Notes: generated by a model not told the origin, from the letters alone. A stretch of 64,000 nt of DNA from an uncultured Actinomycetota bacterium (GCA_963770565.1 CAVYQE010000010.1:32001-96000); one strand, 5' to 3'; positions 4,612 through 32,894 are shown, numbered from the stretch's first letter. A program made the numbers and translations.

Positions 4612-4638
4612 TTCAAGCCTGAGCGGAACGTGGCCGAT
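4612..4638 (+). promoter_or_regulatory. sigma28/FliA/WhiG-like promoter upstream of mglB-like gene
   Basis: TTCAAG-N15-GCCGAT. Confidence 0.7.
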
Positions 4639-4692
4639 GTGGAACGTGAGGCCCCCCACCCTTGGGACAGGCCGTGAGACGAGGTGTCCGTG

Positions 4693-5301
4693 ATGTCCGA
4701 CTCTGCTAACCGCTCCCAGCGGCTGGATCGAGCGATCGCCGACCTGCTGGCGCAGGTGCCTGAGATTGAGGCCGCAGCGGTGGTTTCCTTCGACGGTCTG
4801 CCGATGGCGAGTGCGCTTCCGGCGACGATGGATGAGGACCGGGTCGCCGCGATGAGCGCCGCCCTGCTGAGCCTCGGGGAGCGAGCGGCTGAAGGGCTCG
4901 GCCGCGGTTCGCTCAACCAGGTCTACATCGAGGGCGACCACGGCACTGTCTTCCTGGTGTCGGCCGAGGACGAGGCCGTGTTGGTCGCGGTCGCGGCCCG
5001 CGGCGCCAAGGTCGGCATGATGCTTTACGAGGTACGCCGGTCCGCTCAGACCGTCGCCAATGTGCTGCGCGCCGAGGTCGAGCCGGAGCTGCTGGCCGAG
5101 CCGGCTGCCGAGTTGCCCCCGCTGCAAGCCGTCGCCCCGCCGCTGCCCGAGCCGGAGCCCGCGCCCGTTGCGGACGTTGCCCCGGCAATGGACGCCGAGC
5201 CGAGCGCACCCTACGCCCCGATGTCCTCGGACCCGGCGTGGGTATCACACCTTCCGAACGGATCTGCGGTCGCCGCCAGCGACCCGCAGCCCTGGTCCTG
5301 A
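4693..5301 (+). CDS. Roadblock/LC7 domain protein (MglB-like GAP) with Pro/Glu-rich tail
   Basis: AAAVVSFDGLPMAS...DRVAAMSAALLSLGERAA..LGRG.LNQVYIEG; upstream of small GTPase; alternative start 4684. Confidence 0.9.
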   Translation: MSDSANRSQRLDRAIADLLAQVPEIEAAAVVSFDGLPMASALPATMDEDRVAAMSAALLSLGERAAEGLGRGSLNQVYIEGDHGTVFLVSAEDEAVLVAVAARGAKVGMMLYEVRRSAQTVANVLRAEVEPELLAEPAAELPPLQAVAPPLPEPEPAPVADVAPAMDAEPSAPYAPMSSDPAWVSHLPNGSAVAASDPQPWS

Positions 5302-5337
5302 CCCCCCTAACCACCCGACGCCCACCCGAGGTCTGCC

Positions 5338-6453
5338 GTGAGACTTGAAGGCTCGCTAGACGCCTTCAGCCTGCCGGATATCTTCTCGCTGCTCAGCATG
5401 ACGAAGAAGACCGGCGGACTGCATCTTCGCCGTTCCGGCGCGCACGGCGTCGTCTGGCTCGGCGACGGGTTGATCAGTGGCGGCGCCTCGGACCTGTCGA
5501 GGCTGGCGTTGGGTCGTCGGCTGGCCGGGTGCGGCCATGTCTCTGACGAACAGCTCCGCGAGGCGGTCGAGCTGGTCGCCGGGTCTACCGACGTCGGCCT
5601 TGCCCGCGCGCTTCGCGACGCGAGCGCCATCGATGAGGGCGAGTTGCACACGGTGGTCTGCGAGCACATCGTGGACACCGTCTTCGACCTGATGCGCTGG
5701 ACCGAGGGCGTCTTCGAGTTCGTCATCGACGAGGCCAACGTCGACGACGTCGGGGTGACCCTCGAGGTCGAGGAGGTCGTGACCGACGCGCGGCACCGGC
5801 TGGACACCTGGGCGACGATCGATGAGGGACTCGCCTCGCTGGACACCGTGTTGTCGCTGTCGCTCAACCCGGATCTCGACCCGACCCTGCAGCGCGACGA
5901 GTGGGCACTGCTGGCGCTCATCGACGGGCGGCGCACCATCAGCGACGTCGTCAACCTCTGCGGCCGCGGTGAGTACGCCGTCGTCGTGGCGCTCAACGAG
6001 CTGGTCACGAAGGGCTTGGTCCACACCGAGGAGTCCGAAGGCGTCGCGGCCCTGCAACAGCGGCAAGATCTGGTCGGTTCACTCGAGACCGAGGTCGCAC
6101 CGGCAACGTCGATCCTTGCCGACGTCCTCAGCGACAACTCGGCGGTCGGCGAGACCGATGTCGACGCCGAGTCCCTCCTGGTCCCGGCCGAGCCGGAGGT
6201 CGCGACTGAGGCCGACGACGACGAGGACAGCGACGACAACGAGCAGGTCGCGGACATCTCCACCCTGCCGCGCGCGACGTCCCACGACGATGCCGACGGC
6301 GGCCTTCACTCGCACGACCACCCCGAGCCGCTCGCCGCGGCCGTGTCCGGCGGTGGAATGGTCACCGCCGTACCGTCCGGGGCGATCGAACGCGACCCGA
6401 GCGTCAACAAGAGCTTGCTGCTGCGCTTGATCGCCGGCGTGAGAGGGCTGTAG
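5338..6453 (+). CDS. DUF4388 (PATAN-like) domain protein with HTH-like region and acidic linker
   Basis: LEGSLDAFSLPDIFSLLSMTKKTGGL...G.I..A, W.EG.FEF, EWALLALIDGRRTISD. Confidence 0.85.
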   Translation: MRLEGSLDAFSLPDIFSLLSMTKKTGGLHLRRSGAHGVVWLGDGLISGGASDLSRLALGRRLAGCGHVSDEQLREAVELVAGSTDVGLARALRDASAIDEGELHTVVCEHIVDTVFDLMRWTEGVFEFVIDEANVDDVGVTLEVEEVVTDARHRLDTWATIDEGLASLDTVLSLSLNPDLDPTLQRDEWALLALIDGRRTISDVVNLCGRGEYAVVVALNELVTKGLVHTEESEGVAALQQRQDLVGSLETEVAPATSILADVLSDNSAVGETDVDAESLLVPAEPEVATEADDDEDSDDNEQVADISTLPRATSHDDADGGLHSHDHPEPLAAAVSGGGMVTAVPSGAIERDPSVNKSLLLRLIAGVRGL

Positions 6454-6455
6454 TC

Positions 6456-7034
6456 ATGGCGACCAGGACACGTCGGCGGACCGCAGGCACTGCGGTGAAG
6501 ATCGTGGTGACCGGCCCGTTCGCGGCCGGCAAGACCACCCTGATCCGCACGATCAGCGAGATCACGGTCCTCTCGACCGAGCGCAGCATCAGCGACGAGA
6601 CCCGCGCCCGCAAGACCGACACCACGGTCGCGATGGACTTCGGCCGGATCACGATCGACCGAGACCTCGTGCTGTACCTGTTCGGCACCCCGGGGCAGGA
6701 CCGGTTCGACTTCATGTGGGAGATCCTCGGCGAGGGCATGCTCGGATACGTCCTGCTCGTTGATTCGTCGCGAGCCGACTCGCTCGACGAGGCGGTCAGT
6801 ATCCGCGAGGCCTTCCGCAAGATGGCGCGGGTTCCGTTCGTAATCGGACTGAACCGGGCCGAGGGCCTCGACGAAGCCGAAGAGGCGACCGTCCGCAGCC
6901 GGCTCGACCTCGAGGACGACGTCCCCGTGGTGCCCTGCGACGTCACCGATCGCGAATCGGTGAAGGCGGTGCTGCTCGCCCTGCTGTACGCCGTTGTCGA
7001 CTCGCTGGACGCCGCTGCCGCCGTGCAGGCCTAG
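6456..7034 (+). CDS. MglA/CvnD-like small Ras-like GTPase (ATP_bind_1 family)
   Basis: G1 GPFAAGKTT, G2 TTVAMDFG, G3 FGTPGQDRF. Confidence 0.92.
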   Translation: MATRTRRRTAGTAVKIVVTGPFAAGKTTLIRTISEITVLSTERSISDETRARKTDTTVAMDFGRITIDRDLVLYLFGTPGQDRFDFMWEILGEGMLGYVLLVDSSRADSLDEAVSIREAFRKMARVPFVIGLNRAEGLDEAEEATVRSRLDLEDDVPVVPCDVTDRESVKAVLLALLYAVVDSLDAAAAVQA

Positions 7035-7049: not shown

Positions 7050-7505
7050 GTGAGCGTGTTCGGCCGGCGCAAGAAGCCCGCCAAGCTCGGCATGCGACGT
7101 CGGACGTCGTTCGCCTGGTCCAACGTTGCTTTCCCGCCGCCGGCGCCGGCCGGCCACTCCGTCGAGGCGCCAGCTCCGGACCCGGTCGCTGAGTCGGCAC
7201 CGGAGCCGATTGCCTCCACACCGCCGCCTGCGCCGGACGCGACAGCCGCGCCGATGCCGCCGCCGGCCGAGCCGGTGGCCCCGAACCCGGCCCCGAGGCC
7301 GATGAGGCCAACCGTCGCCGCGGCCGGCCAGAAGCTCGCGTCGGAGCCGGTCGCCGAGGTGCTGCCGCCTGCGCCCGCCGGGTCACGTCCGACTGTGCGG
7401 CTCGGCTTCGTCGACGGGACTTCGTACGAACTCGCCGACTCTTCCGGTGAGTCAAAGGCGCTTAGACGAGTTGCCGCCCAGTTGATCGACGGGCCCTCGG
7501 CCTGA
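7050..7505 (+). CDS. Hypothetical Pro/Ala-rich protein, fourth gene of the Mgl-like operon
   Basis: GGAGG RBS before GTG, 15 bp after GTPase stop; basic N-terminus, Pro-rich linker, compact C-terminal VRLGFVDGTSYEL segment. Confidence 0.65.
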   Translation: MSVFGRRKKPAKLGMRRRTSFAWSNVAFPPPAPAGHSVEAPAPDPVAESAPEPIASTPPPAPDATAAPMPPPAEPVAPNPAPRPMRPTVAAAGQKLASEPVAEVLPPAPAGSRPTVRLGFVDGTSYELADSSGESKALRRVAAQLIDGPSA

Positions 7506-7515: not shown

Positions 7516-8286
7516 TCAGGGTCGACGTACCACCCACCGCACATAGTCGTAGTCGTGGTCCGGGCGTATGACCCGCTCGACGACGCGCAGCCCGTGGTTG
7601 GCGAACATGATTTCCGCTCGCTTCGCCGGCACCGCGAGCATCGAGATTCCGGACAGTCCGGTCCGATGGAGCCGCTCAGGGCGGACGCCGAGCGATCGAA
7701 GCACCCGGTAGAGCTGAAAGCGAGGCTGGAGGCGCGCCCGAAGCTGGTGGGCTGACTCCGGCAGCTCGATGACGGCCGGGGCGCCTGCTGCAAGTGAACT
7801 CGCGATGATGCCGATCGCGTTGTCGATCGCGGTTAGGGTCGGAAGATGCTGCAGCACCAGTAGCGACATCGCGAAGTCGTGCTCGCCCGCCTCGGCGAGC
7901 TCGGACGGAGCCGCTGTAGTGATGTTGGAGATCCTGGCCGTCGCGGCACGTGCCTGCAGCGTCGCCAGCATCCCGGGGGAGATGTCGACCGACGTCACGT
8001 GCTCGAAACGGGCGGCGAGCGCGAATGACAGCCGACCGGTGCCGGCGCCGTAGTCGACCGCACGCCCGTAGTTCACTGGCGGCCCGGCGGCAAGGCACTC
8101 ATCGACCGCTTGGACGCCGCTGGCGTAGAAGTCCGTGAGGTCGGTATCCCAGCCGCCATGGCGGCGGGACCTCTCGGTGAGCACAGCCCAGTCGGGGTCC
8201 TCGGCACCGAGCGACCTCCACACCTCTTGCTGTCGACCCTGCCGGTCGAGGTGTGAGCCTGGGTCTTCACCGGCGTTCGCCGTCAC
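7516..8286 (-). CDS. Class I SAM-dependent methyltransferase (glycan-locus associated)
   Basis: VDYGAGTGRL motif I, VDISPGML, LVLQHLP. Confidence 0.88.
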   Translation of the reverse strand: MTANAGEDPGSHLDRQGRQQEVWRSLGAEDPDWAVLTERSRRHGGWDTDLTDFYASGVQAVDECLAAGPPVNYGRAVDYGAGTGRLSFALAARFEHVTSVDISPGMLATLQARAATARISNITTAAPSELAEAGEHDFAMSLLVLQHLPTLTAIDNAIGIIASSLAAGAPAVIELPESAHQLRARLQPRFQLYRVLRSLGVRPERLHRTGLSGISMLAVPAKRAEIMFANHGLRVVERVIRPDHDYDYVRWVVRRP

Positions 8287-8296
8287 GATTTGCTCC

Positions 8297-9121
8297 TCAT
8301 GTGACCCGCCTGCCGATCAGTCGACGAGCGGCCAGACCGGTGCGGACGGCAGCCACCGCAAGAGGACCGCGCACCGGACCGAGCCGACGCCGGCAGAGTC
8401 GCTCGAACGCACCTATCCACCGCGCACCGCCTCCGGAAGCCCCTTGATCATGCCTGACGACGATCGACGAGACGAGCCGAAAGCGAGCCCCCTGGGCGGA
8501 GGCGGCGGTGCCCCACGCGACGTCCTCGGCGTAGATGAGCTCGTCTTCCGGGATCGGACCGAAGCGCTCGAAGACATCGGCCGCGAGCACGGGGCATGCC
8601 ATGCACAGCCACTGCACGCCGCCGGCGCGGCGGGCCTGGGCGCGGGTCAGGAACACTCCTCGAAGCCCCGGCAACAGATGGCTCAGGAACAGGAAGTAGC
8701 CGGCCACTGACCGCAAGGTGAGTGGACCACCGCCCGGACCGATCTGGAGGCGCCCTTCGGAGCCCGCCAGGAGCGGTGCGATTCCGTCAAGATCTGAGAT
8801 CAGCGCTTCGGTCAGCCGAGTCAGCTGGCTCACGTCGAGGTGTACGTCGGGGTTTAAAAGGAGCCATGGCCGGCGCGGTGAGTCGACCGTTGCGACAGCA
8901 CGGTTGACGGCAGCTGCGAATCCGACGTTGCGATCGATCAACAATGCCTCTGCACGATGAGATGCGCATACCAGCGACACACCGGCGGGGTCGTCACCGT
9001 TGTCGACGACGATTACATGATGACCGGCCAGCAGCCCGCTGTCGAGCTGGCGTTCGATGTTGGGCAGGCTGTGGTAGTTCACGAGCACGACGGTGAGACC
9101 ACCGTGCGAATCGGTGGTCAT
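8297..9121 (-). CDS. Glycosyltransferase family 2 (WbbL/rhamnosyltransferase-like)
   Basis: VVLVNY, VVDNG, NVGFAAAVN, LLLNPD, YAEDVAW. Confidence 0.9.
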   Translation of the reverse strand: MTTDSHGGLTVVLVNYHSLPNIERQLDSGLLAGHHVIVVDNGDDPAGVSLVCASHRAEALLIDRNVGFAAAVNRAVATVDSPRRPWLLLNPDVHLDVSQLTRLTEALISDLDGIAPLLAGSEGRLQIGPGGGPLTLRSVAGYFLFLSHLLPGLRGVFLTRAQARRAGGVQWLCMACPVLAADVFERFGPIPEDELIYAEDVAWGTAASAQGARFRLVSSIVVRHDQGASGGGARWIGAFERLCRRRLGPVRGPLAVAAVRTGLAARRLIGRRVT

Positions 9122-9144
9122 AGTTGCGTCCGGTTCGCACACTG

Positions 9145-10269
9145 CTAGGCGATCCGTTTGCGCGTCGTAGCGGCCCGGGGTTGCGCAGCTACCTGTCTCA
9201 AAGCCTTGAGGACGGTCGATGCGCTCGCGGTCCAACTCAACGCACGCGAGCGTTGCCGGCCACGGGAGCTGAGGTCCATGCGCGCGTTGGTGTTGGTCAG
9301 CAGCTCGGTGAGCGCGGCCGACCAGGAACCGACGTCGAGTGGTGCGAGGATCACTCCCGCGTCGCCGACGACCTCGGGCAGACTGCCGGTGTTGCTTGCC
9401 ACAACCGGGACGCCGGCGTACATCGCCTCGATCGCCGGGATGCCGAAACCTTCGAACAATGATGGAAAGGCGAGGACATCAGCGTTGACGTACTCGTCGG
9501 CGAGTTGCACCTCGGAGACGTAGCCGGTGAAGGTGACCGCGTCTCCGAGCATGACGCGTAGTTCGTGCTCGATCGTTTGCCCAGGCGGCGGGACGTTGCC
9601 GACGACCCGAAGCTCGACCGAAACGCCGCTCGCCCGCATCCGCGCTACCGCGGCGCCAACCGTGACGAGGTTCTTGCGCGGCAAGACGTTGCCGACCGCG
9701 ACGACGCGACGTTCGTGGTCCGGTCGTTGGCGACGGGTCGCGGCATCGACGAACGAGCCGAGGGTTGGGTCGATTGCGTTTGGAGCAACGAGTACCTGCT
9801 CGGCTGTGAGCTCGTAGCGATCAACCAACCCGCGGCGGGTGAACTCGGATGGCACAAGCAACAAAGCTGCGTGCCGAACGCTGTGATCGATCGAGGCGCG
9901 CACTCTGATGCGAAAGCGTCGAGACAGCCAGGCGTGGCTCTGTGGGTCGAAGGGGGACAGGTCGTGGATCATGACGACACAAGGTCGTCGCGTGAGTGGC
10001 TTGGTGTACTGCACGAGCAACGCATCGGCCTTCACCTGGCGCGCTAGTCTTGGCAGATCGACCGCGAGCCGGCGTACGGCCGAGCCCGACAGCGCCAACG
10101 GAGCTCTTCCGGTTAACTCGGCGACCTCGGACCGCCCGCTCTCGCCGGTGCCAAAGAAGACGTCATCCGAGCCGGTAAGGAGGGCGAGCTCGCGGCTGAT
10201 GTTGCGCGCCCAGGTTTCGTTCCCGGTCTGATGAACGCCGATGTGATGGACATCGATGAGAAACCTCAC
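9145..10269 (-). CDS. Glycosyltransferase family 4 (MtfB-like)
   Basis: IHDL, VPSEFT, VGNVLPRKN, FPSLFEGFGIPAIEAMYAGVPV. Confidence 0.92.
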   Translation of the reverse strand: MRFLIDVHHIGVHQTGNETWARNISRELALLTGSDDVFFGTGESGRSEVAELTGRAPLALSGSAVRRLAVDLPRLARQVKADALLVQYTKPLTRRPCVVMIHDLSPFDPQSHAWLSRRFRIRVRASIDHSVRHAALLLVPSEFTRRGLVDRYELTAEQVLVAPNAIDPTLGSFVDAATRRQRPDHERRVVAVGNVLPRKNLVTVGAAVARMRASGVSVELRVVGNVPPPGQTIEHELRVMLGDAVTFTGYVSEVQLADEYVNADVLAFPSLFEGFGIPAIEAMYAGVPVVASNTGSLPEVVGDAGVILAPLDVGSWSAALTELLTNTNARMDLSSRGRQRSRALSWTASASTVLKALRQVAAQPRAATTRKRIA

Positions 10270-10475
10270 CGGCTACATCCGGTCCCACCTGTGGTCACCC
10301 CGAAACCATAACGTCCGCCACGTCGTTATCAGAGTTGTTGCGTAGGCGTGGGCGAATCCAATCCGGGTCAGAGGTCTGGACCACGCAACGCTTCCCGGAT
10401 ACACGGTCCCGACGAGGTCCGACAGTAGGTTTCAGGCGTGCACACGTTCGCGGTTCTCAGTGGTCACCACCGGAG

Positions 10476-11678
10476 GTGACTGGCTTGCGAGTGCTGGTCT
10501 TCGCGCCGTGGGTGCCGCACCCGGACATCGGCCATGCGGGCGGGCTGCTTGTGCTCGGGCACACTCGCGAGCTTGCGGCTCTCTGTGACGTGTCGCTAGT
10601 GGCGCCGACCCACGAGGGTGTGACCACCATCGAGGGCATCGACCTGGTGCCGATCGCCATCAACGTGCCGGGGCGAGGGTTGAGGCGGCGGTTGCGCTAC
10701 CTGCGCTGGCTCGCGCGAGGCCTCGGCCCAGGACCGCAGGAGTTGGATGGGCTTCGACGGTTCCTGCGATCTCCGCATGGCCGGCGACTCACCGCAGCGG
10801 CCGACGTCGTGGAAGTTCACTTCGAGGACATGTTGCCGATCCTCGACGATCTTGACCGCCGATCCCGAGTCGTCCTGTGGGCACATGACGTGGTGTCGGA
10901 GGACCTGATCGTGGCGCAGGTGAATCTGCGTTCGAGGCGGCGCCGAGTTGAGTCCCGAGTCCGGCTCGTGGGTACTCTACGAGCGGAGCGCCGACTTCTT
11001 CCTCAATGCGACGCTGCCGTCGTCTTCAAAGCTGCGGATCAAGACTCGTTGCGTTCCTTGGGGTTCACGGGTCCACTGCGCGTGGCCAGCCCGCGAATCT
11101 TCCCATCGACACCAGATGTTGAAACCCGTCCGCTGTCTGCAGAGCCGATCGTGGTGATCGTGGCGGCCTTCGACCGCGCGGTGAACCGCGAGGGCTTGAT
11201 GTGGTTCGTGAGTCGAGTTTGGCCAGGGGTACGAGACCGGGTGCCAACGGCGCGGCTCGTTGTCGTTGGAGCGCACGCACCGAGCGTGACCGTTGAAGGG
11301 GTCAAGGTCGTCGGCTTCGTGCCCGATCTGTCGTCGGTGTACGCCGAAGCCGATGTGGCCGTCGTTCCGGCACGCGGCGGCGCCGGGCTGAAATTCACGG
11401 TCGCGCAGGCGCTGACAAATGGCGTACCTGTGGTGAGCACGACCAGTGGCGCGCGCGGCTATCCGAGTCCCGACGACGCTGTCTTTCTGGTCCGCCGTGA
11501 CGACCCTGATGGTTTCGCCGCGGCCGTCGTCGAGATCTTGAACGCCCCGGATCGAGGGCGCGCCGCAGGTGCGGCCGGCCGCGCATGGTGGCGGGCTGAG
11601 GACGCGTCTCGGGCCGGCGCCGGCGCCCTTGTCGAGTGGTACTCCGATCTGGCACGGAACGGCGGCGCCGATGGATAG
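10476..11678 (+). CDS. Glycosyltransferase family 4
   Basis: NREGLMWFV..VWP, VVGFVPDL, VVP...GAGLKFTVAQAL..GVPVVSTT.GA.G; start uncertain. Confidence 0.85.
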   Translation: MTGLRVLVFAPWVPHPDIGHAGGLLVLGHTRELAALCDVSLVAPTHEGVTTIEGIDLVPIAINVPGRGLRRRLRYLRWLARGLGPGPQELDGLRRFLRSPHGRRLTAAADVVEVHFEDMLPILDDLDRRSRVVLWAHDVVSEDLIVAQVNLRSRRRRVESRVRLVGTLRAERRLLPQCDAAVVFKAADQDSLRSLGFTGPLRVASPRIFPSTPDVETRPLSAEPIVVIVAAFDRAVNREGLMWFVSRVWPGVRDRVPTARLVVVGAHAPSVTVEGVKVVGFVPDLSSVYAEADVAVVPARGGAGLKFTVAQALTNGVPVVSTTSGARGYPSPDDAVFLVRRDDPDGFAAAVVEILNAPDRGRAAGAAGRAWWRAEDASRAGAGALVEWYSDLARNGGADG

Positions 11679-13053
11679 CCTGGCCGCCACGTGGGGCCGA
11701 GTGCGCAACTCCGGGCCGCTAGTCGTACTGCGGCTGTTGGCCCTCGGGCTCACGCTGGGTCTGTCCGTCGCGCTCGCGCGTCGTGTCGGTGCGGGGCCGT
11801 ACGGCTCATACGCGGCCGGCGCAGCGCTGACTGCGGTGGTTTTCGCGCCCGGCCCATTCGGCGCCGACCAGATGTACCTCACCGGCATGCTCAGCTTCCG
11901 CCGGGCGCTTCGCCGCGCATTGGCGGCAGGCCTCGTGTTGGCCGTGCTGACCTGCGGTGTTGCCTTGGCTTGGCCTTCGCTACCCCGAACCGCCCGGGTG
12001 TGCGCCGTCCTGTTGGCCGTTGCCGCTGCCGCTCAGACCATCTTGGCGATCTGGTTTACCGAGCCGGTTCGGCGCTTGGACTTCGCTCGCCGGGCCAGGC
12101 GGGAGCTTGCCCTCCTGATTGCCACCGTCATCGCCGGAATCGCGGCTCTGCTCGTGAGCCGGTCGGCTGAGTTGTTCGCGACAAGCGCGGTGGTGGCCAG
12201 CGTCTGCCTGTTGACGTTCGCCTTGGCCCGGCACGGGCGAGACCATCGCAGTGGCGCCCACCAGGATGAGCCTCTCCTCCGAAGCGAGTCTCGAAGCTCC
12301 TCGATCCGACATGGGTTGGCCTACTCCGCATCGAGTGTGTTCTACACGGCGTATTTCCAAGTGGACGTGGTGATCCTCGCGGCGCTGCGCGGATCGGAGG
12401 CCGCCGGACAGTATCGGGTCGCGGTGAATGCCCTGTCCGCCTTCGTTGTCATCGCGGTGGTGATGAACAACGACATCCTGCGCCCCATCCTGATCCGACG
12501 ATCGGGAGCAGAATTCGACCGAGCGTCTCGTCGTGGCCTACGGGTAGCCCTCCTCGTCGGGCTGGCTTCCGCGCTCGTTCTCGCCGTTGCCGGGCGTTGG
12601 CTCATCCCAGTGGTCTACGGCAGCGCCTATCAATCCGCAGTCCCTCTCGTCACGATTCTCGCCGCCGGGCTGCTTGCTCACTTCTACAACAGCTGGGCGG
12701 GAAACGCGTTGATTGCCGCAGGCGCGATCTCGCGCGTGGTGGCCATCCAGACCGCGATGCTGGCGGTCAACCTGGTCGCCAACCTGGTCGCGTTGCGCAG
12801 TCACGGTGCGACCGCGTGCGCCGTCATCACCGTCGTCACCGAGGTGGTGGGAGCGGTGGGCTATCTCACCGCGGCCCGATTCGGTGCCCTCTCGCGCCTA
12901 GTCGGGCGTCGCGACGACCTGAAGGCGTTTGCCCGCCTTGGCGATGGAGGCGAGGTAGTCAGCGGTGCGAGCGCCGACAGTGGTGAGGGCCCCGGGCCGA
13001 TAGTTGTCGAAACCGACGTCATCACGCCCGGCTTCGGTGAGATCGGGCCCTGA
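11671..13053 (+). CDS. Wzx-type oligosaccharide flippase (MOP family)
   Basis: Many hydrophobic segments; LARRVGAGPYGSY, YFQVDVVIL....G.EAAGQYRVA, YGSAY..A. Confidence 0.85.
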   Translation: MDSLAATWGRVRNSGPLVVLRLLALGLTLGLSVALARRVGAGPYGSYAAGAALTAVVFAPGPFGADQMYLTGMLSFRRALRRALAAGLVLAVLTCGVALAWPSLPRTARVCAVLLAVAAAAQTILAIWFTEPVRRLDFARRARRELALLIATVIAGIAALLVSRSAELFATSAVVASVCLLTFALARHGRDHRSGAHQDEPLLRSESRSSSIRHGLAYSASSVFYTAYFQVDVVILAALRGSEAAGQYRVAVNALSAFVVIAVVMNNDILRPILIRRSGAEFDRASRRGLRVALLVGLASALVLAVAGRWLIPVVYGSAYQSAVPLVTILAAGLLAHFYNSWAGNALIAAGAISRVVAIQTAMLAVNLVANLVALRSHGATACAVITVVTEVVGAVGYLTAARFGALSRLVGRRDDLKAFARLGDGGEVVSGASADSGEGPGPIVVETDVITPGFGEIGP

Positions 13054-13827: not shown

Positions 13828-13889
13828 CCGTTCACTTTAGAGGCTCGCTAATCCCGCATTATGGAACGGCGCGACAGTACGTTTTATAC

Positions 13890-23632: not shown

Positions 23633-23655
23633 TCGGACGATCCACCCAGATGGCT

Positions 23656-23682: not shown

Positions 23683-23691
23683 AGTGCGACG

Positions 23692-26172: not shown

Positions 26173-26174
26173 CC

Positions 26175-26798
26175 ATGCGAGCGAACCTGCGGCGCCGGCT
26201 GCGCAAGTCGGACGAGGGAACCAGCCTCATCGAGCTGCTGGTCGTAATGATCATCTTCACGATGATCATGGCGATCATCACCACCGCAATCGTGAACATG
26301 GTGCACGAGGGCCAGCGGCAGTCCGGGCAGAGCAACGACATGAGCGCCGCGCGCAAGGTGATCACGATCCTCGATCACTCGGCGCGCTACGCCAATGCGA
26401 TCACGGCCCCGGGCACCGGCACCGACGGCAACTTCTACGTCGAGTTCCAGACGGGGAACAACGGCCAGCAGCAGACCTGCACGCAGTGGCGCTGGGTGCA
26501 GACCGGCGGCAAGCTGCAGTGGCGGACCTGGCAGCCGCCGTTGAGCGGCATCGGCTCGGTCACGGCCACCAACTGGTCCACAGCCGCGATCGGCATCAGC
26601 AAGATCGGGTCGACGCCGGTGTTCTCGATCGCGGTCGCCTCGTCGGCCGACGCCAAGGAGCAGCTCACCGTGGCGTTCACCGCGACCAGCGGCGCGCCGT
26701 CGACGAGCTCCTCGAGCCAGGTGACCTTGACCGCGATCAACTCCGCCTCAAACAGTGCACCTCTCGCCGCAACATGCACCCAGGTTGGTCGTCCATGA
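26175..26798 (+). CDS. Minor pilin (PilW/PulJ-like)
   Basis: DEG/TSLIELLVVMIIF class III signal; two Cys. Confidence 0.85.
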   Translation: MRANLRRRLRKSDEGTSLIELLVVMIIFTMIMAIITTAIVNMVHEGQRQSGQSNDMSAARKVITILDHSARYANAITAPGTGTDGNFYVEFQTGNNGQQQTCTQWRWVQTGGKLQWRTWQPPLSGIGSVTATNWSTAAIGISKIGSTPVFSIAVASSADAKEQLTVAFTATSGAPSTSSSSQVTLTAINSASNSAPLAATCTQVGRP

Positions 26799-28558
26799 AC
26801 CGATTGATCCGCATCGTGCGCAGCCGCCAGAACAACGACGGCGGCTTCGCCATGATCTTCACGCTCTTCCTGATCCTGATCATTGCGGTGGTGAGCGTCA
26901 CGGTCGCCGACATCATGATCAACCAGGTCGGCCCGACCACGCTCGCGCAGAAGCAGGTGCGGACAGTCGATGCAGCGTCCGCGGGCATGCAGGCCGCGCT
27001 CGGCCAGCTGCGCAACACCTCGACGAACGGCGGCGGTGACCTCACCAAGCTGCCGTGCTCGGACACCACCGACTCGGGCGGCGTGACGCTGACCGTCGGT
27101 ACCCCCAAGCAGACCGTCTCGGTCGCCGGTGACCAGATCAACGGGACGGTCGAGCAGGTCACGCCGGCCAACACGGTCGCGACCTACCGCACCGTGATCG
27201 CCTACTTCCAGACCGACCCGACCTCGCACGAGGCCGACTCCTCGACGACCTGGTGGGCCAACAACGCGATCCCGTGCAAGGCCGGCATCGTGAAGTACGT
27301 CCCGACGTACGCGTTCATCCAGTCGTACGGACTAGGCCAGACGCTCCCGAACCAGGCCGCGACCGAGGGCAACCGCACCCTGCATGCGGTCTACCAGTTC
27401 AACGCGACCAACACCAACACGGTCGGCGGCCGGATGGCCGAGTTCAACAGCAGCGCTCAGGACACGATGTGCCTCGACACTGGCCGCGCCGAGCCGACCG
27501 CCGGCACTGTGGCGACGATGCAGCCCTGCCTGGCCCTCGGCACGCCACAGCAGACTTGGCAGTACCGCGCCGACCTCACCCTGTTCTACGGCGGCGACAC
27601 GACGCTGAACCTGTGCATTCAGAACGTGACCGCGACCTATGGGCATGCCGGTACGCCGAAGCTCGAGCCGTGCGCGACGATCGGGTCCGGCACGACCTAC
27701 CCGTACGCGAACCAGACGCAGCAGGAGCAGGAGTGGGCCTACAACGACAACGGCCAGCTCGAAGCGCCTGACATCAACAACGGAAGCGTCGGCGGCGGCA
27801 CTGCGCCGGACCCGGGTGGCTGCCTCGAGGGCGCCGGTGTCACCACCTCCGCAGCGGCGGTGGCCGGCGCGGCCCTCAGCGTCGTCACCTGCAGCGGCTC
27901 GTCTGGCGACCTCACCGCGTGGAACCCCGACCCGCAGGTCGGCGCCGGCAAGTCCGGTGGCAACGTGACCGGTATCCCCGGTGCGCCGACCCAGCAGTAC
28001 GTCAACTACGCGATGTTTGGGAACTGCCTCGACGTCAACGGCCAGCAGTTCGGCAACAAGCTGATCGCCTACCCGTGCAAGCAGGCGCCGGACTCGACGA
28101 CCCTGACCTGGAACCAGCTGTGGCATTTCCAGACCGTGTCGGGCTCGTACGGCATCTTCTACACGAACTGCTCGGCCGGGGCGAGCGGTTGCATCCCGTC
28201 GAGCCCGGCCTCATCGGTGAAGGACTGCCTGGTCTCACCGGGCACCCTCAACGGCCTGGTGTACGGCGTGCAGTGCCCGACCGGCACGCCGCCGGACAAC
28301 GAGCTGTGGGACCCGACCGGCGTCGTCTCCGGCAACTACCCGAGCTCTTACCTGCTTATCAACAAGGCGGACGGCTACTGCATGGCGCCGGATCCGACCC
28401 AGCGGTCGAACGGCTGGGCGCAGATTGCCGTTACAACCTGCGACGGCACCAACATTCCGTCCGGCGCGGGCGCGAAGAACTCGTTGCTGCTGAAGTGGAA
28501 CGCGCCGGCGACGAACCCCAACGCCGGGTTGAGCAGCATCCAGGAAGACTCCAACTAG
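26795..28558 (+). CDS. PilX-like minor pilin with ricin-B (beta-trefoil) lectin repeats
   Basis: DGG/FAMIFTL (no Glu5, PilX hallmark), AASAGMQAAL; repeated CLD...C....Q.W units (QQTW, QEW, NQLW, NELW); ATGA overlap with upstream gene. Confidence 0.82.
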   Translation: MNRLIRIVRSRQNNDGGFAMIFTLFLILIIAVVSVTVADIMINQVGPTTLAQKQVRTVDAASAGMQAALGQLRNTSTNGGGDLTKLPCSDTTDSGGVTLTVGTPKQTVSVAGDQINGTVEQVTPANTVATYRTVIAYFQTDPTSHEADSSTTWWANNAIPCKAGIVKYVPTYAFIQSYGLGQTLPNQAATEGNRTLHAVYQFNATNTNTVGGRMAEFNSSAQDTMCLDTGRAEPTAGTVATMQPCLALGTPQQTWQYRADLTLFYGGDTTLNLCIQNVTATYGHAGTPKLEPCATIGSGTTYPYANQTQQEQEWAYNDNGQLEAPDINNGSVGGGTAPDPGGCLEGAGVTTSAAAVAGAALSVVTCSGSSGDLTAWNPDPQVGAGKSGGNVTGIPGAPTQQYVNYAMFGNCLDVNGQQFGNKLIAYPCKQAPDSTTLTWNQLWHFQTVSGSYGIFYTNCSAGASGCIPSSPASSVKDCLVSPGTLNGLVYGVQCPTGTPPDNELWDPTGVVSGNYPSSYLLINKADGYCMAPDPTQRSNGWAQIAVTTCDGTNIPSGAGAKNSLLLKWNAPATNPNAGLSSIQEDSN

Positions 28559-28626: not shown

Positions 28627-29409
28627 GTGGCCGGCCTGCTCGCCCTGATCGGGCTTTTCGGTCTCGCCATCGGCTCGTTCCTCAACGTTGTCATCTGGCG
28701 GGTGCCGCGCGGCGAGTCGGTTGCCCGCCCGCCGTCGCACTGCCCGTCCTGCGACGTGTTGATCAGCCACCGCGACAACGTGCCGGTGCTGTCGTGGCTG
28801 TTCCTTCGGGGCCGATGCCGCAACTGCAACGCCAGGATCTCGATCCGCTATCCGCTGGTGGAACTTGCGACCTGCGCCCTGTTTGTTGCGTTCGGGATTC
28901 GGTTCGGGATCCACGCGGATCTGTTTGCGTACCTGTACCTGGCCGCGGTCGGCATTGCGCTGGCAATGATCGACATCGATCTGCTGCGCCTTCCGGATGC
29001 GCTCACCCTCCCGTCGTACCCGGTTGGCCTAGCGCTGCTCGGGATCGCCGCATGGGTCGACAACGCCCCTCACGCCTTCGTACGGGCCCTGCTGGGGATG
29101 GCTGCCCTAGCAGCCTTCTACGCCCTTGTATGGCTGATCTACCCGGCCGGAATGGGCTTCGGAGACGTGAAGCTGGCCGGCCTGGTGGGCCTCTATCTCG
29201 CCTGGCTCGGCTGGGACCAGCTCGTCGTAGGGGCATTTGCCGCGTTTGTCGTCGGTGCGGTCGCGAGCGTCGGCATCGTGGCGGTCAAGGGCGGCAACCG
29301 CAAGACCCGGGTGCCATTCGGTCCGTTCATGTTGATCGGGCTCCTGATCGGGATTTATGCGGGTCACCCGATTGCCCACGCATACACCCATTTCACTTCT
29401 GGATCTTGA
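28627..29409 (+). CDS. pilD: Prepilin peptidase/N-methyltransferase (A24A)
   Basis: GSFLNVVIWRVP, SHCPSC, GRCRNC, ID.D, GMGFGDVKL, VPFGPFM. Confidence 0.96.
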   Translation: MAGLLALIGLFGLAIGSFLNVVIWRVPRGESVARPPSHCPSCDVLISHRDNVPVLSWLFLRGRCRNCNARISIRYPLVELATCALFVAFGIRFGIHADLFAYLYLAAVGIALAMIDIDLLRLPDALTLPSYPVGLALLGIAAWVDNAPHAFVRALLGMAALAAFYALVWLIYPAGMGFGDVKLAGLVGLYLAWLGWDQLVVGAFAAFVVGAVASVGIVAVKGGNRKTRVPFGPFMLIGLLIGIYAGHPIAHAYTHFTSGS

Positions 29410-29451: not shown

Positions 29452-29478
29452 CTCAAGAAGCGCCGTGTCCTTACCGAT
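29452..29478 (+). promoter_or_regulatory. sigma28/FliA/WhiG-like promoter upstream of pilM
   Basis: CTCAAG-N15-ACCGAT. Confidence 0.62.
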
Positions 29479-29547
29479 CTGGTCCTTTGACAGACAACCA
29501 GACCGCGTAAGCGCTCGGGTGTTGCTCGCGTACGGGAGGACGAACCA

Positions 29548-30627
29548 GTGGCAGGACGAACTGCGGTTGGTCTCGACATCGGGACCTCCGGTGTCCGCGC
29601 AGCCGAACTCGCGTTCGGCAAGGGACCGGCGACGCTTATGCGATTCGGCCAGGTGGCGCTCCCGCAAGGAGCGGTACGCGATGGCGAGGTGGTCGACCCA
29701 CAGCTGGTCGCCGATGCGATCAAGCACCTGTGGTCGACGGCGAAGTTCTCGTCGAAGAACGTAGTGCTCGGCGTCGCCAACCAGAAGGTGATCGTCCGTC
29801 AGGTCGATCTGCCCTGGATGCCCGCGGACGAGCTGCGCAAGTCACTGCCCCTGCAGGTGCAGGACTTCCTGCCGATCCCGATCGAGCAGGCGATCCTCGA
29901 CTTCCACCCGATCTCCGAGGTGACCGGCGAGGGTGGCAACCGGATGCTGCGGGTGCTCGTCGTCGCCGCGGCTCGTGACATGATCCTCACCGCCCTCGAG
30001 TCCGTGAAGCGAGCCGGACTGCGGGCCACCCAGGTCGACCTCACCCCGTTCGCCGTGCTTCGCGCGCTCGGCCGGGTCGACGAGGTCGGCGGTGCGCCGG
30101 GATCGCAGAGCGGGACCGAAGCGCTTATCGACGTCGGGGCGAAGGTCACCAACATCGTCATCCACCAGAACGGCAACCCGCGCTTCGTCCGCATCCTGCT
30201 GATGGGCGGCGACAACATCACCGACGCCGTCAGCGAGCGGCTCGGTGTCCCGTTCGACCAGGCAATCGCGGTCAAGCAGCAGGTCGGGATGTCTCCGGTT
30301 CGCGGCGACGCGATGAGCGACCACCCGGCGGCTCGAGTGATCGAGGCCTCGGCCGGCTCGTTCGTCGAAGAGGTCCGCGGTTCGCTTGACTACTACCTCG
30401 CGCAGCCGTCGTCCGTTCCGCTGACGCGCATCGTTCTTTCCGGTGGCGGCGCCCGCCTCACCGGTCTTGGCCAGCGGCTCGCCGCTGCCACTCGTCTCCC
30501 GGTTGAGCCAGGTGTCGCTACCGCGGCACTGAAGATCGGCAAGACCGGACTCACCGAAGAGCAACTGAGCTACGTCGAGCCGCAGATCGCAGTGCCGGTC
30601 GGACTCGCACTGGGGGTGGCGTCGTGA
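29548..30627 (+). CDS. pilM: Type IV pilus assembly protein PilM (actin/FtsA-like)
   Basis: VGLDIGTSGVR, IDVGAKVT, LSGGGARL, AVPVGLAL. Confidence 0.95.
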   Translation: MAGRTAVGLDIGTSGVRAAELAFGKGPATLMRFGQVALPQGAVRDGEVVDPQLVADAIKHLWSTAKFSSKNVVLGVANQKVIVRQVDLPWMPADELRKSLPLQVQDFLPIPIEQAILDFHPISEVTGEGGNRMLRVLVVAAARDMILTALESVKRAGLRATQVDLTPFAVLRALGRVDEVGGAPGSQSGTEALIDVGAKVTNIVIHQNGNPRFVRILLMGGDNITDAVSERLGVPFDQAIAVKQQVGMSPVRGDAMSDHPAARVIEASAGSFVEEVRGSLDYYLAQPSSVPLTRIVLSGGGARLTGLGQRLAAATRLPVEPGVATAALKIGKTGLTEEQLSYVEPQIAVPVGLALGVAS

Positions 30628-31310
30628 CCACGCAGACCGAGCTGACGGCGGGCGTTGCGGCGATGCCGCGCGTCAACCTCATGCCGCCGGAGATCGCGGA
30701 GGCCGAGCGCTTCCGCCGGCTTCAGCTGGCGATGGGTGCCGCAGTCGTTGCCTCCGTCGTCGTCGTGGGCGGACTCTACGTCCACGCCAAGAGCGGAATC
30801 TCCTCGGCTCGCGCCCAGGTGACCCAGGCGCAGGCCGACCAGACGTCGCTGCAGACGAAGCTGGACGGCCTGGCCAGCGTCCGGCAGACCTTTGCCGAGG
30901 TGCTGGGCAAGCAGCAGTTGCTGCAGGCCGCCATGGGTCAGGAGATCCGTTGGTCCTACGTGCTCAACGACCTGTCGTTGCGGGTGCCGAGCAACGTCTG
31001 GCTGACCGGTGTTTCGGCGAGCGAGATCACGACCGGGGTCGGCGCACCTGGCTCGAGCACGGCCACTGTGCTGCCCGGGGCTCCGCTCGACGACATCGGA
31101 ACAGTGTCGTTCGCGGGCGTGGGCTTCAAGCACGACGACGTCGCGGCCTGGCTCAACTCCATCGCCAAGGAGCGGGGCTTCAGTGACCCGACCTTCAGTG
31201 CTTCGACCGAGAATGCGATCGGCTCACGCCCGGTCGTCACCTTCGGCAGCACGGCGGTCTTGACCTCCAAGGCATTGTCCAACCGATTCGTCCAGAAGGC
31301 GGGCAGCTGA
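30624..31310 (+). CDS. pilN: Type IV pilus assembly protein PilN
   Basis: RVNLMPPE (INLLP-like) motif, single TM, coiled coil, P.NVWLT. Confidence 0.9.
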   Translation: MTTQTELTAGVAAMPRVNLMPPEIAEAERFRRLQLAMGAAVVASVVVVGGLYVHAKSGISSARAQVTQAQADQTSLQTKLDGLASVRQTFAEVLGKQQLLQAAMGQEIRWSYVLNDLSLRVPSNVWLTGVSASEITTGVGAPGSSTATVLPGAPLDDIGTVSFAGVGFKHDDVAAWLNSIAKERGFSDPTFSASTENAIGSRPVVTFGSTAVLTSKALSNRFVQKAGS

Positions 31311-31311
31311 C

Positions 31312-32115
31312 ATGACCAAGACACGCCAATGGTCGGTGTTCACGGCGATTGCCGTGCTTGCCGTCCTCGCGGTCGGCTGGTTCCTGCTGGTCAAGCCGCA
31401 GAACTCCAAGGTCACCAGCCTGAAGTCTCAGGCTGCGAGCCAGCAGGCGAGCAACCAGCTCCTTGTGTCGCAAATCGCAACGCTGCAGTCCGAGGAGAAG
31501 CAGCTTCCGCAGCAGCAGCAGGCTCTGCAGAAGTTCGCCACGCAGGTGCCGACCGACGCCTCCGAGCCGATGATCATCCGGCAGCTCTCTGCGGCCGCGG
31601 CGGGCTCAGGGGTCGACCTCGTGTCGATCACCCCTGGTGCGCCGACGGCGGTGGCGGCCACTGCGACCGCAGTGGGCGGCAGCGCGCTGACCCCGGCGGC
31701 GAGCACTGGCTCCACGCTCGTGCAGCTGCCGATCTCGCTCGGCATCACCGGCACCTTCCCGAACGTGGAGTCGTTCTTCCAGTCGCTGGAGAAGCTGCCG
31801 CGAGCCCTGCTGGTCACCGGCTGGTCGCTCTGCCCCGACCCGGACACCAGTGCGGGGTCAGGCGGATCGGTGAGTTGCGCTCTCCCGGCGACCCCGACTG
31901 GCGACACCCTGCCGACTAACGCACTGGGCGGTGTTCTCACGGCCTACGTGTTCTATGCGCCCCCGGCCAGTGCAACCACGACGGTTGCGCCGGGCGTCAC
32001 CGGTACGACGCCGACTCCGGCCGGCACGCCGACCACGGCCGGGACACCGACCCCGGGGACGTCAACCGCAGCCACGCCATCGACCGATGGGGCCTCCTCG
32101 GCCCCGGCGAGCTAG
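31312..32115 (+). CDS. pilO: Type IV pilus assembly protein PilO with Thr/Pro-rich tail
   Basis: N-terminal TM, coiled coil, IRQLS.AA..SGV.L.SITP, G.F..V..F...LEKLPRALLV. Confidence 0.88.
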   Translation: MTKTRQWSVFTAIAVLAVLAVGWFLLVKPQNSKVTSLKSQAASQQASNQLLVSQIATLQSEEKQLPQQQQALQKFATQVPTDASEPMIIRQLSAAAAGSGVDLVSITPGAPTAVAATATAVGGSALTPAASTGSTLVQLPISLGITGTFPNVESFFQSLEKLPRALLVTGWSLCPDPDTSAGSGGSVSCALPATPTGDTLPTNALGGVLTAYVFYAPPASATTTVAPGVTGTTPTPAGTPTTAGTPTPGTSTAATPSTDGASSAPAS

Positions 32116-32127
32116 GAGCAGTCCGCA

Positions 32128-32850
32128 ATGACTGAGACATCGTTGATTCCCGATGGCGCGACTGCGACCGACGACGGTGTCGGCGGCATGCTGCCGGCCC
32201 AGCACGACCCGGACAGTGGCGAGGGCGGCAACCGCCGCCGCCTGCTGATCCTCGGCGCGGTAGCCGGCGTCATCGTCCTCGCCGCGGCGGCCTATTTGCT
32301 GCTACACAAGGGCTCGTCGAGCGCCCCGTCGGCCGTTGTGCCGCACGGTGTCGTCTCCTCGGCGCCGGCCAACCATCCGTCGCCGGCCAAGACCACCAAG
32401 AAGCACGGTGGCACGAAGACCCTTCCGAAGGCGAACAAGCACCAGCTCGCTCGTGACCCGTTCATCCCGCTGATCGTGGCTCCGGCTGAGACCAACGGAT
32501 CGTCGTCGACCGGCACCGGCACGGGCACCACGCCGACCACCTCGCCGTCCACCGGTGCGACCCCGACCCCGACGCCGACCCCGACGAACTCCGGCGGCAC
32601 CGGCTCATCGGCTGGGCCGCACTGGATCCAGCTCCTGAGCGCCAATGGCCAGACCGCCGTGTTCAAGGTCGGTTACGGGAACCACAAGTTCCGCAAGTAC
32701 ACGGTGGTGGCGCCGAAGGCGAGCAGCCACCAGGGCACCATCTTCGCGAAGGTGTTCGCGCTGATCTCGGTGCAGAAGAACGAGGCAACGGTGCAGTTCG
32801 GCGACGACGCACCGTTCATCCTGACAAAGGGTCAGATCCAGGCACCTTGA
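32128..32850 (+). CDS. Single-TM Thr/Pro-rich protein in the PilP position
   Basis: RRRLLILGAVAGVIVLAAAAYLLL, RDPF.PL motif, C-terminal beta-rich domain; RBS AGGAG. Confidence 0.75.
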   Translation: MTETSLIPDGATATDDGVGGMLPAQHDPDSGEGGNRRRLLILGAVAGVIVLAAAAYLLLHKGSSSAPSAVVPHGVVSSAPANHPSPAKTTKKHGGTKTLPKANKHQLARDPFIPLIVAPAETNGSSSTGTGTGTTPTTSPSTGATPTPTPTPTNSGGTGSSAGPHWIQLLSANGQTAVFKVGYGNHKFRKYTVVAPKASSHQGTIFAKVFALISVQKNEATVQFGDDAPFILTKGQIQAP

Positions 32851-32861
32851 CCCGCTGGCTC

Positions 32862-32894
32862 CGACCCCGCCACGGTGACCCCGTGGTGGGGTCG
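32862..32894 (+). terminator. Hairpin closing the pil cluster
   Basis: CGACCCCGCCACGG / CCGTGGTGGGGTCG, 14-bp stem with one G-U pair. Confidence 0.7.

Follow-up and report, generated by a model that had tools for sequence, protein, structure and literature searches.

A putative WhiG-controlled type IVa pilus locus with a PATAN-bearing G-protein operon in an uncultured actinomycete

Introduction

In Clostridioides difficile, pilA1 is controlled by a class II riboswitch for c-di-GMP (cyclic di-guanosine monophosphate) in its leader. The placement and timing of type IV pili in monoderms are largely unknown, and conservon G-protein systems are widespread in the Actinomycetota, with poorly understood outputs. 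Here, we analysed a 64,000-nucleotide stretch of DNA from an uncultured soil actinomycete (the window; contig C10:32001-96000 of a 4.43 Mb genome in 11 contigs, 94.9% complete), whose closest relatives are titled Frankiaceae, Frankiales or Mycobacteriales. The window holds a pilus gene cluster headed by genes for a Roadblock protein, a PATAN (DUF4388) protein and a small GTPase (the triad). We read the locus as probably a single, jointly regulated type IVa pilus system in an actinomycete without flagella, and its frameshifts most likely as errors of the assembly consensus.

Control of type IV pilus genes by the sigma factor WhiG has been published for Rubrobacter radiotolerans, through RsiG-(c-di-GMP)-WhiG (PMC8325347), and for Actinoplanes, and is predicted for Cellulomonadaceae, Cryptosporangiaceae, Sanguibacteraceae, Rubrobacteraceae and Jonesiaceae (bioRxiv 10.64898/2026.01.14.699351), as described in the accessible parts of these reports. 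The available text of Wuichet and Sogaard-Andersen places the conservon GTPase CvnD in group 2 of the MglA family and describes PATAN genes as occasional neighbours of MglA and MglB genes. For Synechocystis, the accessible reports describe binding of a PATAN domain to the N-terminal domains of PilB1 and PilC. An earlier reading of the window from its sequence alone (the sequence-only reading) had proposed a WhiG-driven, c-di-GMP-gated, glycosylated type IVa pilus with its own MglA/MglB/PATAN polarity module.

Results

Gene content of the pilus cluster

The pilus cluster was bounded in the window by whiA (~2000-2994) and aroC (32945-34120) on Pfam analysis, which gave the order triad, sugar island, Wzy_C, pilB, pilT, pilC, pilins, prepilin peptidase and pilM/N/O. 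The features were as follows.

4613-4640, plus strand: WhiG-type promoter P1, before the triad (TCAAG-N15-GCCGATGT)
4684-5301, plus strand: Roadblock/LC7 protein, CvnB/MglB-like, with a Pro/Ala-rich tail (Pfam Robl_LC7, 67.3 bits)
5338-6453, plus strand: protein with a PATAN (DUF4388) domain, a winged helix and, after a disordered linker, an invariant C-terminal helix (Pfam DUF4388)
6456-7034, plus strand: small GTPase of the MglA family, of the conservon CvnD type (Pfam ATP_bind_1, 74.4 bits)
7050-7505, plus strand: Pro/Ala-rich open reading frame (ORF) of 151 aa, a doubtful gene without a family match
7516-15791, no strand assigned: variable glycosylation island (Pfam and further family models)
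15795-15822, plus strand: WhiG-type promoter P2, before Wzy_C (by motif)
15829-17346, plus strand: Wzy_C-domain membrane protein, a candidate pilin O-oligosaccharyltransferase (54.8 bits with Pfam Wzy_C, cut-off 31.7)
17343-19015, plus strand: pilB (MshEN and T2SSE), frame-broken as written (Pfam and comparison with the same-genus genome G001)
19049-19076, plus strand: WhiG-type promoter P3, before pilT (by motif)
19137-20615 (end approximate), plus strand: pilT, with a Pro/Ala-rich N-terminal extension (TIGR01420)
20619-21862 (start approximate), plus strand: pilC, frame-broken as written (Pfam T2SSF and comparison with G001)
21917-21943, plus strand: WhiG-type promoter P4, 24 nt before the aptamer (by motif)
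21968-22051, plus strand: c-di-GMP-I (GGC variant) aptamer (RF03167)
22052-22134, plus strand: expression platform of the riboswitch (folds and alignment)
22135-22575, 22684-23133 and 23183-23632, plus strand: three pilin genes (Pfam N_methyl, GFTLIELL-type N-termini)
23584-28558, plus strand: minor-pilin-like genes (862 aa; 207 aa; a ricin-B lectin fusion) (Pfam and further family models)
28627-29409, plus strand: prepilin peptidase, pilD (A24_N_bact 121 bits, Peptidase_A24 45.4 bits)
29453-29480, plus strand: WhiG-type promoter P5, before pilM (by motif)
29548-32850, plus strand: pilM, pilN, pilO and a 240-aa Ser/Thr/Pro-rich membrane protein (Pfam)

The Pfam matches comprised MshEN and T2SSE pieces for pilB, T2SSE for pilT, T2SSF for pilC, five N_methyl genes, A24, PilM_2, PilN and PilO. 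PilC, PilM/N/O, the prepilin peptidase and the N_methyl pilins together correspond to the type IVa set, with pilC frame-broken in the window. PilT scored 486.8 bits with the retraction ATPase family TIGR01420 (cut-off 319.1), and PilM 204.8 bits with TIGR01175 (cut-off 133). The PilB ortholog of G001 is intact (553 aa); its best family was TIGR02538, at 650.4 bits just below the cut-off of 675.65, and it carries the MshE-type c-di-GMP motif NF053729 (62.2 bits against 38), for which binding is a prediction. The PilC ortholog of G001 is likewise intact (408 aa) and PilC-type. The Roadblock-DUF4388-GTPase operon, the Wzx/glycosyltransferase/methyltransferase/ligase locus and the MshEN domain of PilB (for the fragment in the window, 53.3 bits with a cut-off of 23.1) that the sequence-only reading had named were all recovered by Pfam.

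Among the minor-pilin-like genes, the 862-aa ORF has N_methyl, TIG and PGGG repeats. The product of the fusion gene at 26795-28558 (probable start near 26795) joins a pilin-like N-terminus (NDGGFAMIF...) to a ricin-B lectin domain, a make-up that points to a sugar-binding minor pilin or tip.

WhiG-type promoters and the sigma system

The pattern TCAAG-N14-16-RCCGAT occurred at five sites in the window (4613, 15795, 19049, 21917 and 29453), all on the plus strand and all intergenic, preceding the Roadblock gene, Wzy_C, pilT, the riboswitch and pilM; 0.16 sites were expected from shuffles, and none of 100 shuffles reached five. The whole genome contained 27 sites on both strands, including the five in the pilus cluster. 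The WhiG2 consensus, as given in the accessible text of the WhiG-regulon preprint (bioRxiv 10.64898/2026.01.14.699351), is T(A/C)AA-N16-GCCGATAA with the last three -10 bases variable, and the five sites fit it as T(A/C)AA-N16-GCCGA... Both hexamers were kept at 4/4 sites covered by the G001 contig, P1 among them, despite diverged spacers. P2 ends 7 nt ahead of the Wzy_C start, and a leaderless transcript from this promoter is possible.

A WhiG equivalog is encoded in the genome (385 bits with NF004935, cut-off 343), in the context xerC-whiG-...-rpsB, as is a twin-motif RsiG (PF22802, 107.7 bits; two E-x3-S-x2-R-x3-Q-x3-D motifs), and FHIPEP/FlhA was not found in the 94.9% complete genome. These findings, with the five motifs, agree with the proposal of a sigma28/WhiG-driven system. 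The claim that one motif precedes parts of the G-protein operon, the glycosylation locus and the pilus genes alike held for the first and the last; in the glycosylation locus only the last gene, Wzy_C, is so preceded. Genes that follow other intergenic sites of the genome code for an RsiG-like protein, a PAS-EAL protein and, in a che cluster, a methyl-accepting chemotaxis protein (MCP); these target classes (RsiG-like, c-di-GMP enzyme, chemotaxis) match those reported for WhiG2 regulons in the same preprint.

The RsiG-like gene (C1:530465-531046, minus strand; L166) encodes a 180-aa single-motif protein (PF22802, 55.8 bits) and has a WhiG-type motif 13 nt upstream of its start; the product is possibly a WhiG-driven second anti-sigma factor beside the twin-motif RsiG. 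The gene for the latter divergently adjoins one whose product (974 aa) begins with a DUF4388/PATAN domain (locus C2:563688-567360; L165), and an insertion sequence-type DDE transposase follows; long PATAN paralogs of this kind were second matches in many class genomes. The chemosensory cluster (C2:263243-270468; L167), in this genome without FlhA, comprises two MCPs, CheA (Hpt, HATPase, CheW, REC), a REC-GAF regulator and a separate CheW-domain match at 270073-270468, and the second MCP gene is preceded by a WhiG-type motif. This cluster may serve to steer the pili.

A predicted c-di-GMP riboswitch in the pilA leader

The GEMM riboswitch proposed before pilA was confirmed as a c-di-GMP-I-GGC aptamer (67.8 bits with Rfam RF03167, gathering score 59, E 6.8e-14) at 21968-22051, ending 84 nt before the pilA ATG at 22135. 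Double changes were seen at 7 of 27 predicted pairs among 14 sequences, and the aptamer stems covaried in 14 relatives. The platform consists of a small covarying hairpin, a GAGCCGCGC...GCGCGGCTC hairpin without a U-tract, and the Shine-Dalgarno sequence. Folds of the single sequence and of the alignment gave a platform of two conserved hairpins, with a long-range helix of 5 bp as a possibility, and no clear terminator or sequestering structure in the pilA leader. No statement on the ligand of the GGC variant was found in the literature searched.

The riboswitch family was matched in 59/150 class genomes at E <= 0.001, with 18 above the gathering score, and PilM was present in 56 of these 59. 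The riboswitch lay between the PATAN gene and pilM on one contig in 25 genomes, judged by eye from coordinates. Among the best 30 riboswitch matches, a pilin gene came next in 18 and a WhiG-type motif lay upstream in 13, at 22-28 nt from the aptamer in 12 of these and at 40 nt in one. The WhiG-type promoter, riboswitch and pilA form a recurring unit.

Downstream of the aptamer, an AGGGGGA-like purine-rich motif and a GGCTCACC motif stand at a fixed distance from the Shine-Dalgarno sequence in various families (22052-22134, L057-L084).

Linkage of the triad and the pilus genes across relatives

The class sample comprised 151 genomes, with the PATAN ortholog called at E <= 1e-25; a further 79 loci came from a contig collection (genome_contigs), with titles of Frankiaceae, Frankiales, Mycobacteriales, Acidothermaceae or Actinomycetota. 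The tallies include genomes flagged as unpublished (G032, G040, G049, G055, G057, G060 and G067; loci L040, L056, L073, L074 and L076), and no conclusion rests on these alone. The PATAN ortholog was present in 60 genomes and PilM in 93: both in 54, the triad only in 6, PilM only in 39 and neither in 52. PilM was thus found in 54/60 genomes with the PATAN ortholog versus 39/91 without, counts on which kinship inflates any test. In this profiling, of a kind envisaged by the sequence-only reading, most triad genomes also had PilM, and 39 PilM genomes had no triad.

Gene order was also conserved. In the 30 best loci, from 30 class genomes with our own included, the Roadblock, PATAN and GTPase genes stood in order in 26; the remaining four were at contig ends or had no Roadblock match (L043). 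The motif preceded the Roadblock gene in 23 of the 30, and pilB lay within the 1.5 kb flank in 12. Roadblock was upstream in 76/79 of the loci from the contig collection, and a WhiG-type motif lay within 200 nt of its start in 65/74 loci with enough flank. Downstream of the triad, 54 loci were informative: pilB followed directly in 28, Wzy_C and then pilB in 9 and a glycosylation island in 13, with 4 unresolved, so that the triad adjoined pilB or a Wzy_C/glycosylation insert in 50/54. As these three arrangements coexist, the ancestral layout is predicted to be triad-pilB-pilT-pilC-pilA, with Wzy_C and later the sugar island having grown in between. The shared promoter, and its retention together with triad-pilB linkage in many relatives, support the view that the parts belong together.

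Directly upstream of the triad lie rapZ, a yvcK/cofD-like gene and whiA (window 1-4430), and the yvcK-whiA-triad order recurs in 8/80 related loci. Two ORFs between whiA and the triad (3076-3978, minus strand; 4011-4430) had no family match. The doubtful 151-aa ORF downstream of the GTPase gene had tblastn matches only in five loci of close relatives (L025, L026, L027, L085 and L099).

The glycosylation island and the Wzy_C protein

The island has a lower G+C content (0.66) and encodes two methyltransferases, one weak GT2 glycosyltransferase, two GT4 glycosyltransferases, a Wzx-like flippase and a 692-aa PGT-like/DUF1972-GT4 fusion (Cps2T-like), giving three GT4-type enzymes in all. Positions 10318-13870 had no match in G001, which carries ~7.6 kb of different DNA after its triad. 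The Wzy_C stop (17344-17346) overlaps the pilB GTG (17343-17345) as GTGA, and among the related loci, L146, L148, L156, L159 and L162, for instance, also have a WhiG-type motif ahead of Wzy_C. The overlap, the WhiG motif of its own and the nine loci with Wzy_C alone before pilB favour a pilus-tied enzyme.

The C-terminal serine of the pilin is the TfpO acceptor in P. aeruginosa; two of the pilins here end in ...SGAA and ...SGAS. Since no O-oligosaccharyltransferase model reached its cut-off, glycosylation of the pilin by the Wzy_C enzyme is a proposal that we consider about evenly balanced between true and false. The island and the Wzy_C protein, as polymerase or ligase, could instead serve a cell-surface polysaccharide that is co-expressed with pili because these may need or bind it. 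We consider this a serious possibility, somewhat short of even. Wzx, Wzy_C and glycosyltransferases form the classic polysaccharide set, the island varies between close relatives, and a PDB sequence search with the Wzy_C protein returned no solved relative. However, in 9/54 loci Wzy_C stands between the GTPase gene and pilB with no other sugar gene, its promoter motif and its overlap link it to pilB, and a Pfam scan of the island ORFs turned up no chain-length regulator, exporter or LCP ligase.

The G-protein triad

The GTPase gave Myxococcus MglA as its top solved match, at merely 25.7 bits. It shares the PGQ G3 motif with MglA, but DTT aligns to the intrinsic arginine of MglA (DRT), and the switch I arginine finger of MglA sensu stricto (group 1 of Wuichet) is absent. 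It was 45-52% identical (112-146 bits) to GTPases of five large class genomes, each of which has 5-10 such paralogs; one of these paralogs (L170, checked by Pfam) sits in a Robl_LC7-DUF742-ATP_bind_1 operon, the conservon core, and this likeness to the GTPases of Robl-DUF742-GTPase operons places it with the CvnD type (MglA-family group 2). The nearest solved structures of the Roadblock protein were 7f8m (E 5e-22) and CvnB5, 3leq (E 1.3e-10), with no MglB match at E up to 1. Neither gene had a paralog in its own genome. By sequence comparison, the G-protein pair is therefore assigned to the conservon type (CvnD/CvnB-like) and not to the Myxococcus type, and the MglA/MglB module of the sequence-only reading was set aside.

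The middle protein matched the DUF4388 profile at 72.3 bits against a cut-off of 25. Residues 1-175 form a PATAN domain and residues 185-232 a winged helix, followed by a disordered linker (250-353) and a 22-residue C-terminal helix; the predicted local distance difference test score of its model was ~90 over residues 1-175 and ~87 over 185-232. The winged helix aligned weakly with that of DUF742 (hhalign E 0.0062). Pfam found no HATPase/CvnA-like kinase or DUF742 in the triad-flanking ORFs or the middle gene, so that a full conservon is not present. Because of the CvnD-like GTPase, the CvnB-like Roadblock, the weak DUF742 likeness and the lack of an adjoining kinase, the triad looks like a kinase-less conservon whose protein in the CvnC position carries a PATAN domain.

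A Foldseek search of the PATAN-protein model against the PDB gave no match at E <= 0.001. A wide structure search gave mostly winged-helix matches to residues 159-236, the best being GATOR1 NPRL2 (8fw5_B, Z 9.3) and the SEA complex (8adl_S, Z 8.9), and barely tested the PATAN domain; a PDB sequence search with the PATAN profile gave just marginal MarR-type matches. Complex prediction of PilB 1-270 with PATAN protein 1-240 gave no answer (score 0.00 in both runs) and is evidence neither way.

The 22 residues that close the PATAN protein (IERDPSVNKSLLLRLIAGVRGL, window 6385-6450) were identical in 10/13 aligned sequences, with 1-4 differences in the other three, and follow a wholly variable linker. 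This invariant helix looks like a docking helix for some partner.

Alternatively, the triad could be a conservon-like regulator of general scope (of development, for instance, or of gene expression through its winged helix) and a mere pilus neighbour within the WhiG regulon. The kinship of the GTPase and the Roadblock protein with conservon proteins and the winged helix of the middle protein are in keeping with this, as are the non-pilus outputs of known conservons and a relative in which triad and pilM lie far apart (G125). We nevertheless regard it as rather unlikely: the triad adjoins pilB or a pilB-linked insert in 50/54 informative loci, PilM accompanies it in 54/60 genomes, the genome holds no second GTPase or Roadblock gene of this kind, and the cyanobacterial PATAN domain binds the pilus motor, according to the accessible text of that work.

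Broken reading frames in pilB, pilT and pilC

The full retractile machine named in the sequence-only reading is present as a gene set on Pfam analysis, but pilB, pilC and the end of pilT are broken as written. In three-frame translation, pilB and pilC switch frames, with pilB spread over three. G001, with intact pilB, pilT and pilC, served as the reference. Relative to it, pilB had 11 one-base insertions, pilT a +1 insertion at 20550 that shifts the last codons, and pilC 14 insertion events, each of one or two bases, along with two deletions, in total ~26 one- or two-base insertions; in the rest of the G001-aligned region, gaps came in compensating pairs. Contigs of relatives lacked one letter at 17999, 18017, 18387/18392, 18563-18565 and 18853. 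The corrected frames had no stops and amino-acid identities to G001 of 90.6% (pilB) and 82.5% (pilC), and the ratio of nonsynonymous to synonymous substitution (dN/dS) was 0.135 for pilB and 0.255 for pilC after correction, and 0.189 for pilT.

A genome-wide frame scan (segmentation on G+C at third codon positions; threshold of at least 10 same-strand frame switches per 2 kb) identified only four patches: that in the pil genes and three others, at C2:624-633 kb, C7:51.5-57.5 kb and C1:1267-1271 kb. The one on C2 holds genes unrelated to pili (a short-chain dehydrogenase/reductase, aldehyde dehydrogenase, glutamine-synthetase-like protein, GntR, amidotransferase and GcvT-type dehydrogenase). 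Uncompensated insertions versus deletions relative to the genome G003 numbered 97 vs 12 in the C2 patch and 36 vs 5 in the C7 patch; with the same filter, window 13801-22000 gave 31 vs 7. These events very probably reflect patchy consensus errors of the assembly and not gene decay.

The genes in the three other patches (C2:624001-633000, L014; C7:51001-58000, L015; C1:1267001-1271000, L016), dense in one-base insertions, would be miscalled as pseudogenes. Quadruplet codons or programmed frameshifting at the +1 sites were considered and rejected: the inserted base and its context vary by site, and unrelated genes are equally affected. A recoding signal is ruled out because the inserted bases lie outside homopolymers and have no common word around them.

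The machine could also be dead, with real insertions in pilB, pilT and pilC marking a recent pseudogene cluster. In the assembly as it stands, neither pilB nor pilC has an intact frame, and no same-strain read set was found to contradict the insertions. Natural gene decay is usually biased to deletions. The insertion-only signature recurs in the unrelated genes of C2 and C7, and ~26 independent events without relaxed substitution, given the identities, the lack of stops and the dN/dS values of the corrected frames, make a dead machine a quite improbable explanation.

Discussion

The gene content, the enrichment and conservation of the motif, the synteny and the co-occurrence described above are best explained by one probable, co-regulated type IVa pilus system. 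Five predicted sigma-WhiG promoters would define five units: the triad; Wzy_C-pilB; pilT-pilC; riboswitch-pilA with the minor pilins; and pilMNO. c-di-GMP would act at three levels, by sequestration of WhiG through RsiG, through the c-di-GMP-I aptamer in the pilA leader, and on the MshEN-type motif of PilB. The triad would comprise a Roadblock protein (a likely GTPase-activating protein), a PATAN-winged-helix protein in the CvnC position and a CvnD-type GTPase, whose cycle, via the PATAN domain, may set where or when the PilB/PilC motor builds pili. The Wzy_C protein may move a glycan made by the inserted island onto the pilin. In this scheme we infer the protein-protein contacts, the polarity, the glycosylation and the direction of each c-di-GMP effect.

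Several points weigh against this reading. The motif pattern was written only after the sites had been seen, and one locus from a complete genome (L110) lacked the motif under the strict pattern. The loci were gathered by PATAN-protein likeness from related lineages, and their counts are not independent. Since 39/93 PilM-positive genomes have no triad, pili do not need it; 6/60 triad genomes had no PilM match (one 95% complete, five 78-87%), and in G125 the triad lies ~300 kb from pilM. Conservons studied to date, as far as the accessible literature describes them, act on development, metabolites or gyrase. The Wzy_C family also includes polymerases and ligases, and the pilin oligosaccharyltransferase model TfpM was matched at 19.1 bits against a cut-off of 600. 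No public sequencing run contains the strain over pilB/pilC (best share of words 0.19), so the frameshifts are not disproved by reads.

That the shared motif is a chance or other-factor site is very unlikely. Its -35 reads TCAA instead of TAAA and its final two -10 bases differ from GCCGATAA, but the published consensus, in the text available, permits both deviations, no shuffle reached five sites, all five are intergenic and in sense, the hexamers persist over diverged spacers in G001 and a like motif stands in 65/74 loci.

On the co-regulated pilus reading, a broader proposal can be put forward tentatively, and on the doubtful side: that a conservon-type switch, whose subunit in the CvnC position acquired a PATAN domain, is a dedicated where-and-when controller of type IVa pili in many Actinomycetes, that c-di-GMP acts on the pilus three times, and that a Wzy_C enzyme produced along with PilB O-glycosylates the pilin. 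If true, a conservon-like system would for the first time have a direct cellular output assigned to it, the pili of a monoderm would have their first polarity-type module, and Wzy_C glycosylation of a pilin would have its first case in the Actinomycetota. A single-copy, kinase-less conservon relative locked to a defined machine offers testable phenotypes (pilus number, placement and twitching). The arrangement is common, with the PATAN ortholog in 60/151 sampled class genomes, and as L110 comes from a genome listed as complete, bench tests may be within reach. A practical lesson is that insertion-rich patches in this assembly mimic pseudogenes.

Comparison with known systems

The sequence-only reading had held the full combination to be undescribed in Actinobacteria. 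WhiG control of type IV pili is already published, while the triad, the tandem control of pilA by promoter and riboswitch, and the coupling of Wzy_C to pilB appear undescribed. The literature searches turned up no text that ties actinobacterial pili to a Roadblock/GTPase/PATAN operon, to a riboswitch or to Wzy_C, and supplementary target tables may list such genes; the available main text of the WhiG-regulon preprint does not mention roadblock, GTPase, MglA, riboswitch or glycos, and the accessible text of PMC8325347 does not mention a riboswitch.

The locus resembles the Rubrobacter and other WhiG regulons, as far as these are described in the accessible text, in having WhiG and RsiG, several WhiG-type promoters in the pilus cluster, and c-di-GMP enzyme and chemotaxis targets. 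It differs in that the lineage lies outside the families named there and in that the regulon adds the triad, Wzy_C and a riboswitch behind the pilA promoter. With the conservons (CvnA-D; MfpB-D), it shares the order Roadblock, middle protein, GTPase, as well as a GTPase 45-52% identical and a CvnB-like Roadblock; here, however, no CvnA-like kinase adjoins, a PATAN-winged-helix protein replaces DUF742, and the system is single-copy and pilus-linked. The MglA/MglB pairs of Myxococcus xanthus and Thermus likewise combine a small GTPase bearing the PGQ G3 motif with a Roadblock protein, whereas here the match is only 25.7 bits, DTT stands for DRT and the Roadblock has no MglB match at E up to 1.

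As with the cyanobacterial PATAN-REC regulators (PixE, PixG), PATAN is genetically tied to the type IV pilus motor, but there is no receiver domain, and PATAN is fused to a winged helix and a C-terminal helix and encoded between the Roadblock and GTPase genes. The Wzy_C O-oligosaccharyltransferases (PglL, TfpO/PilO, TfpM; WsaB of Gram-positive S-layers) are alike in a Wzy_C gene beside pilus genes; here no oligosaccharyltransferase cut-off is reached, the host is a monoderm actinomycete, and the candidate gene is coupled to pilB and not to pilA. Finally, as in C. difficile pilA1, a c-di-GMP riboswitch lies in the major pilin leader of a monoderm; here it is of class I and stands behind a promoter that is itself predicted to be under c-di-GMP control through RsiG-WhiG.

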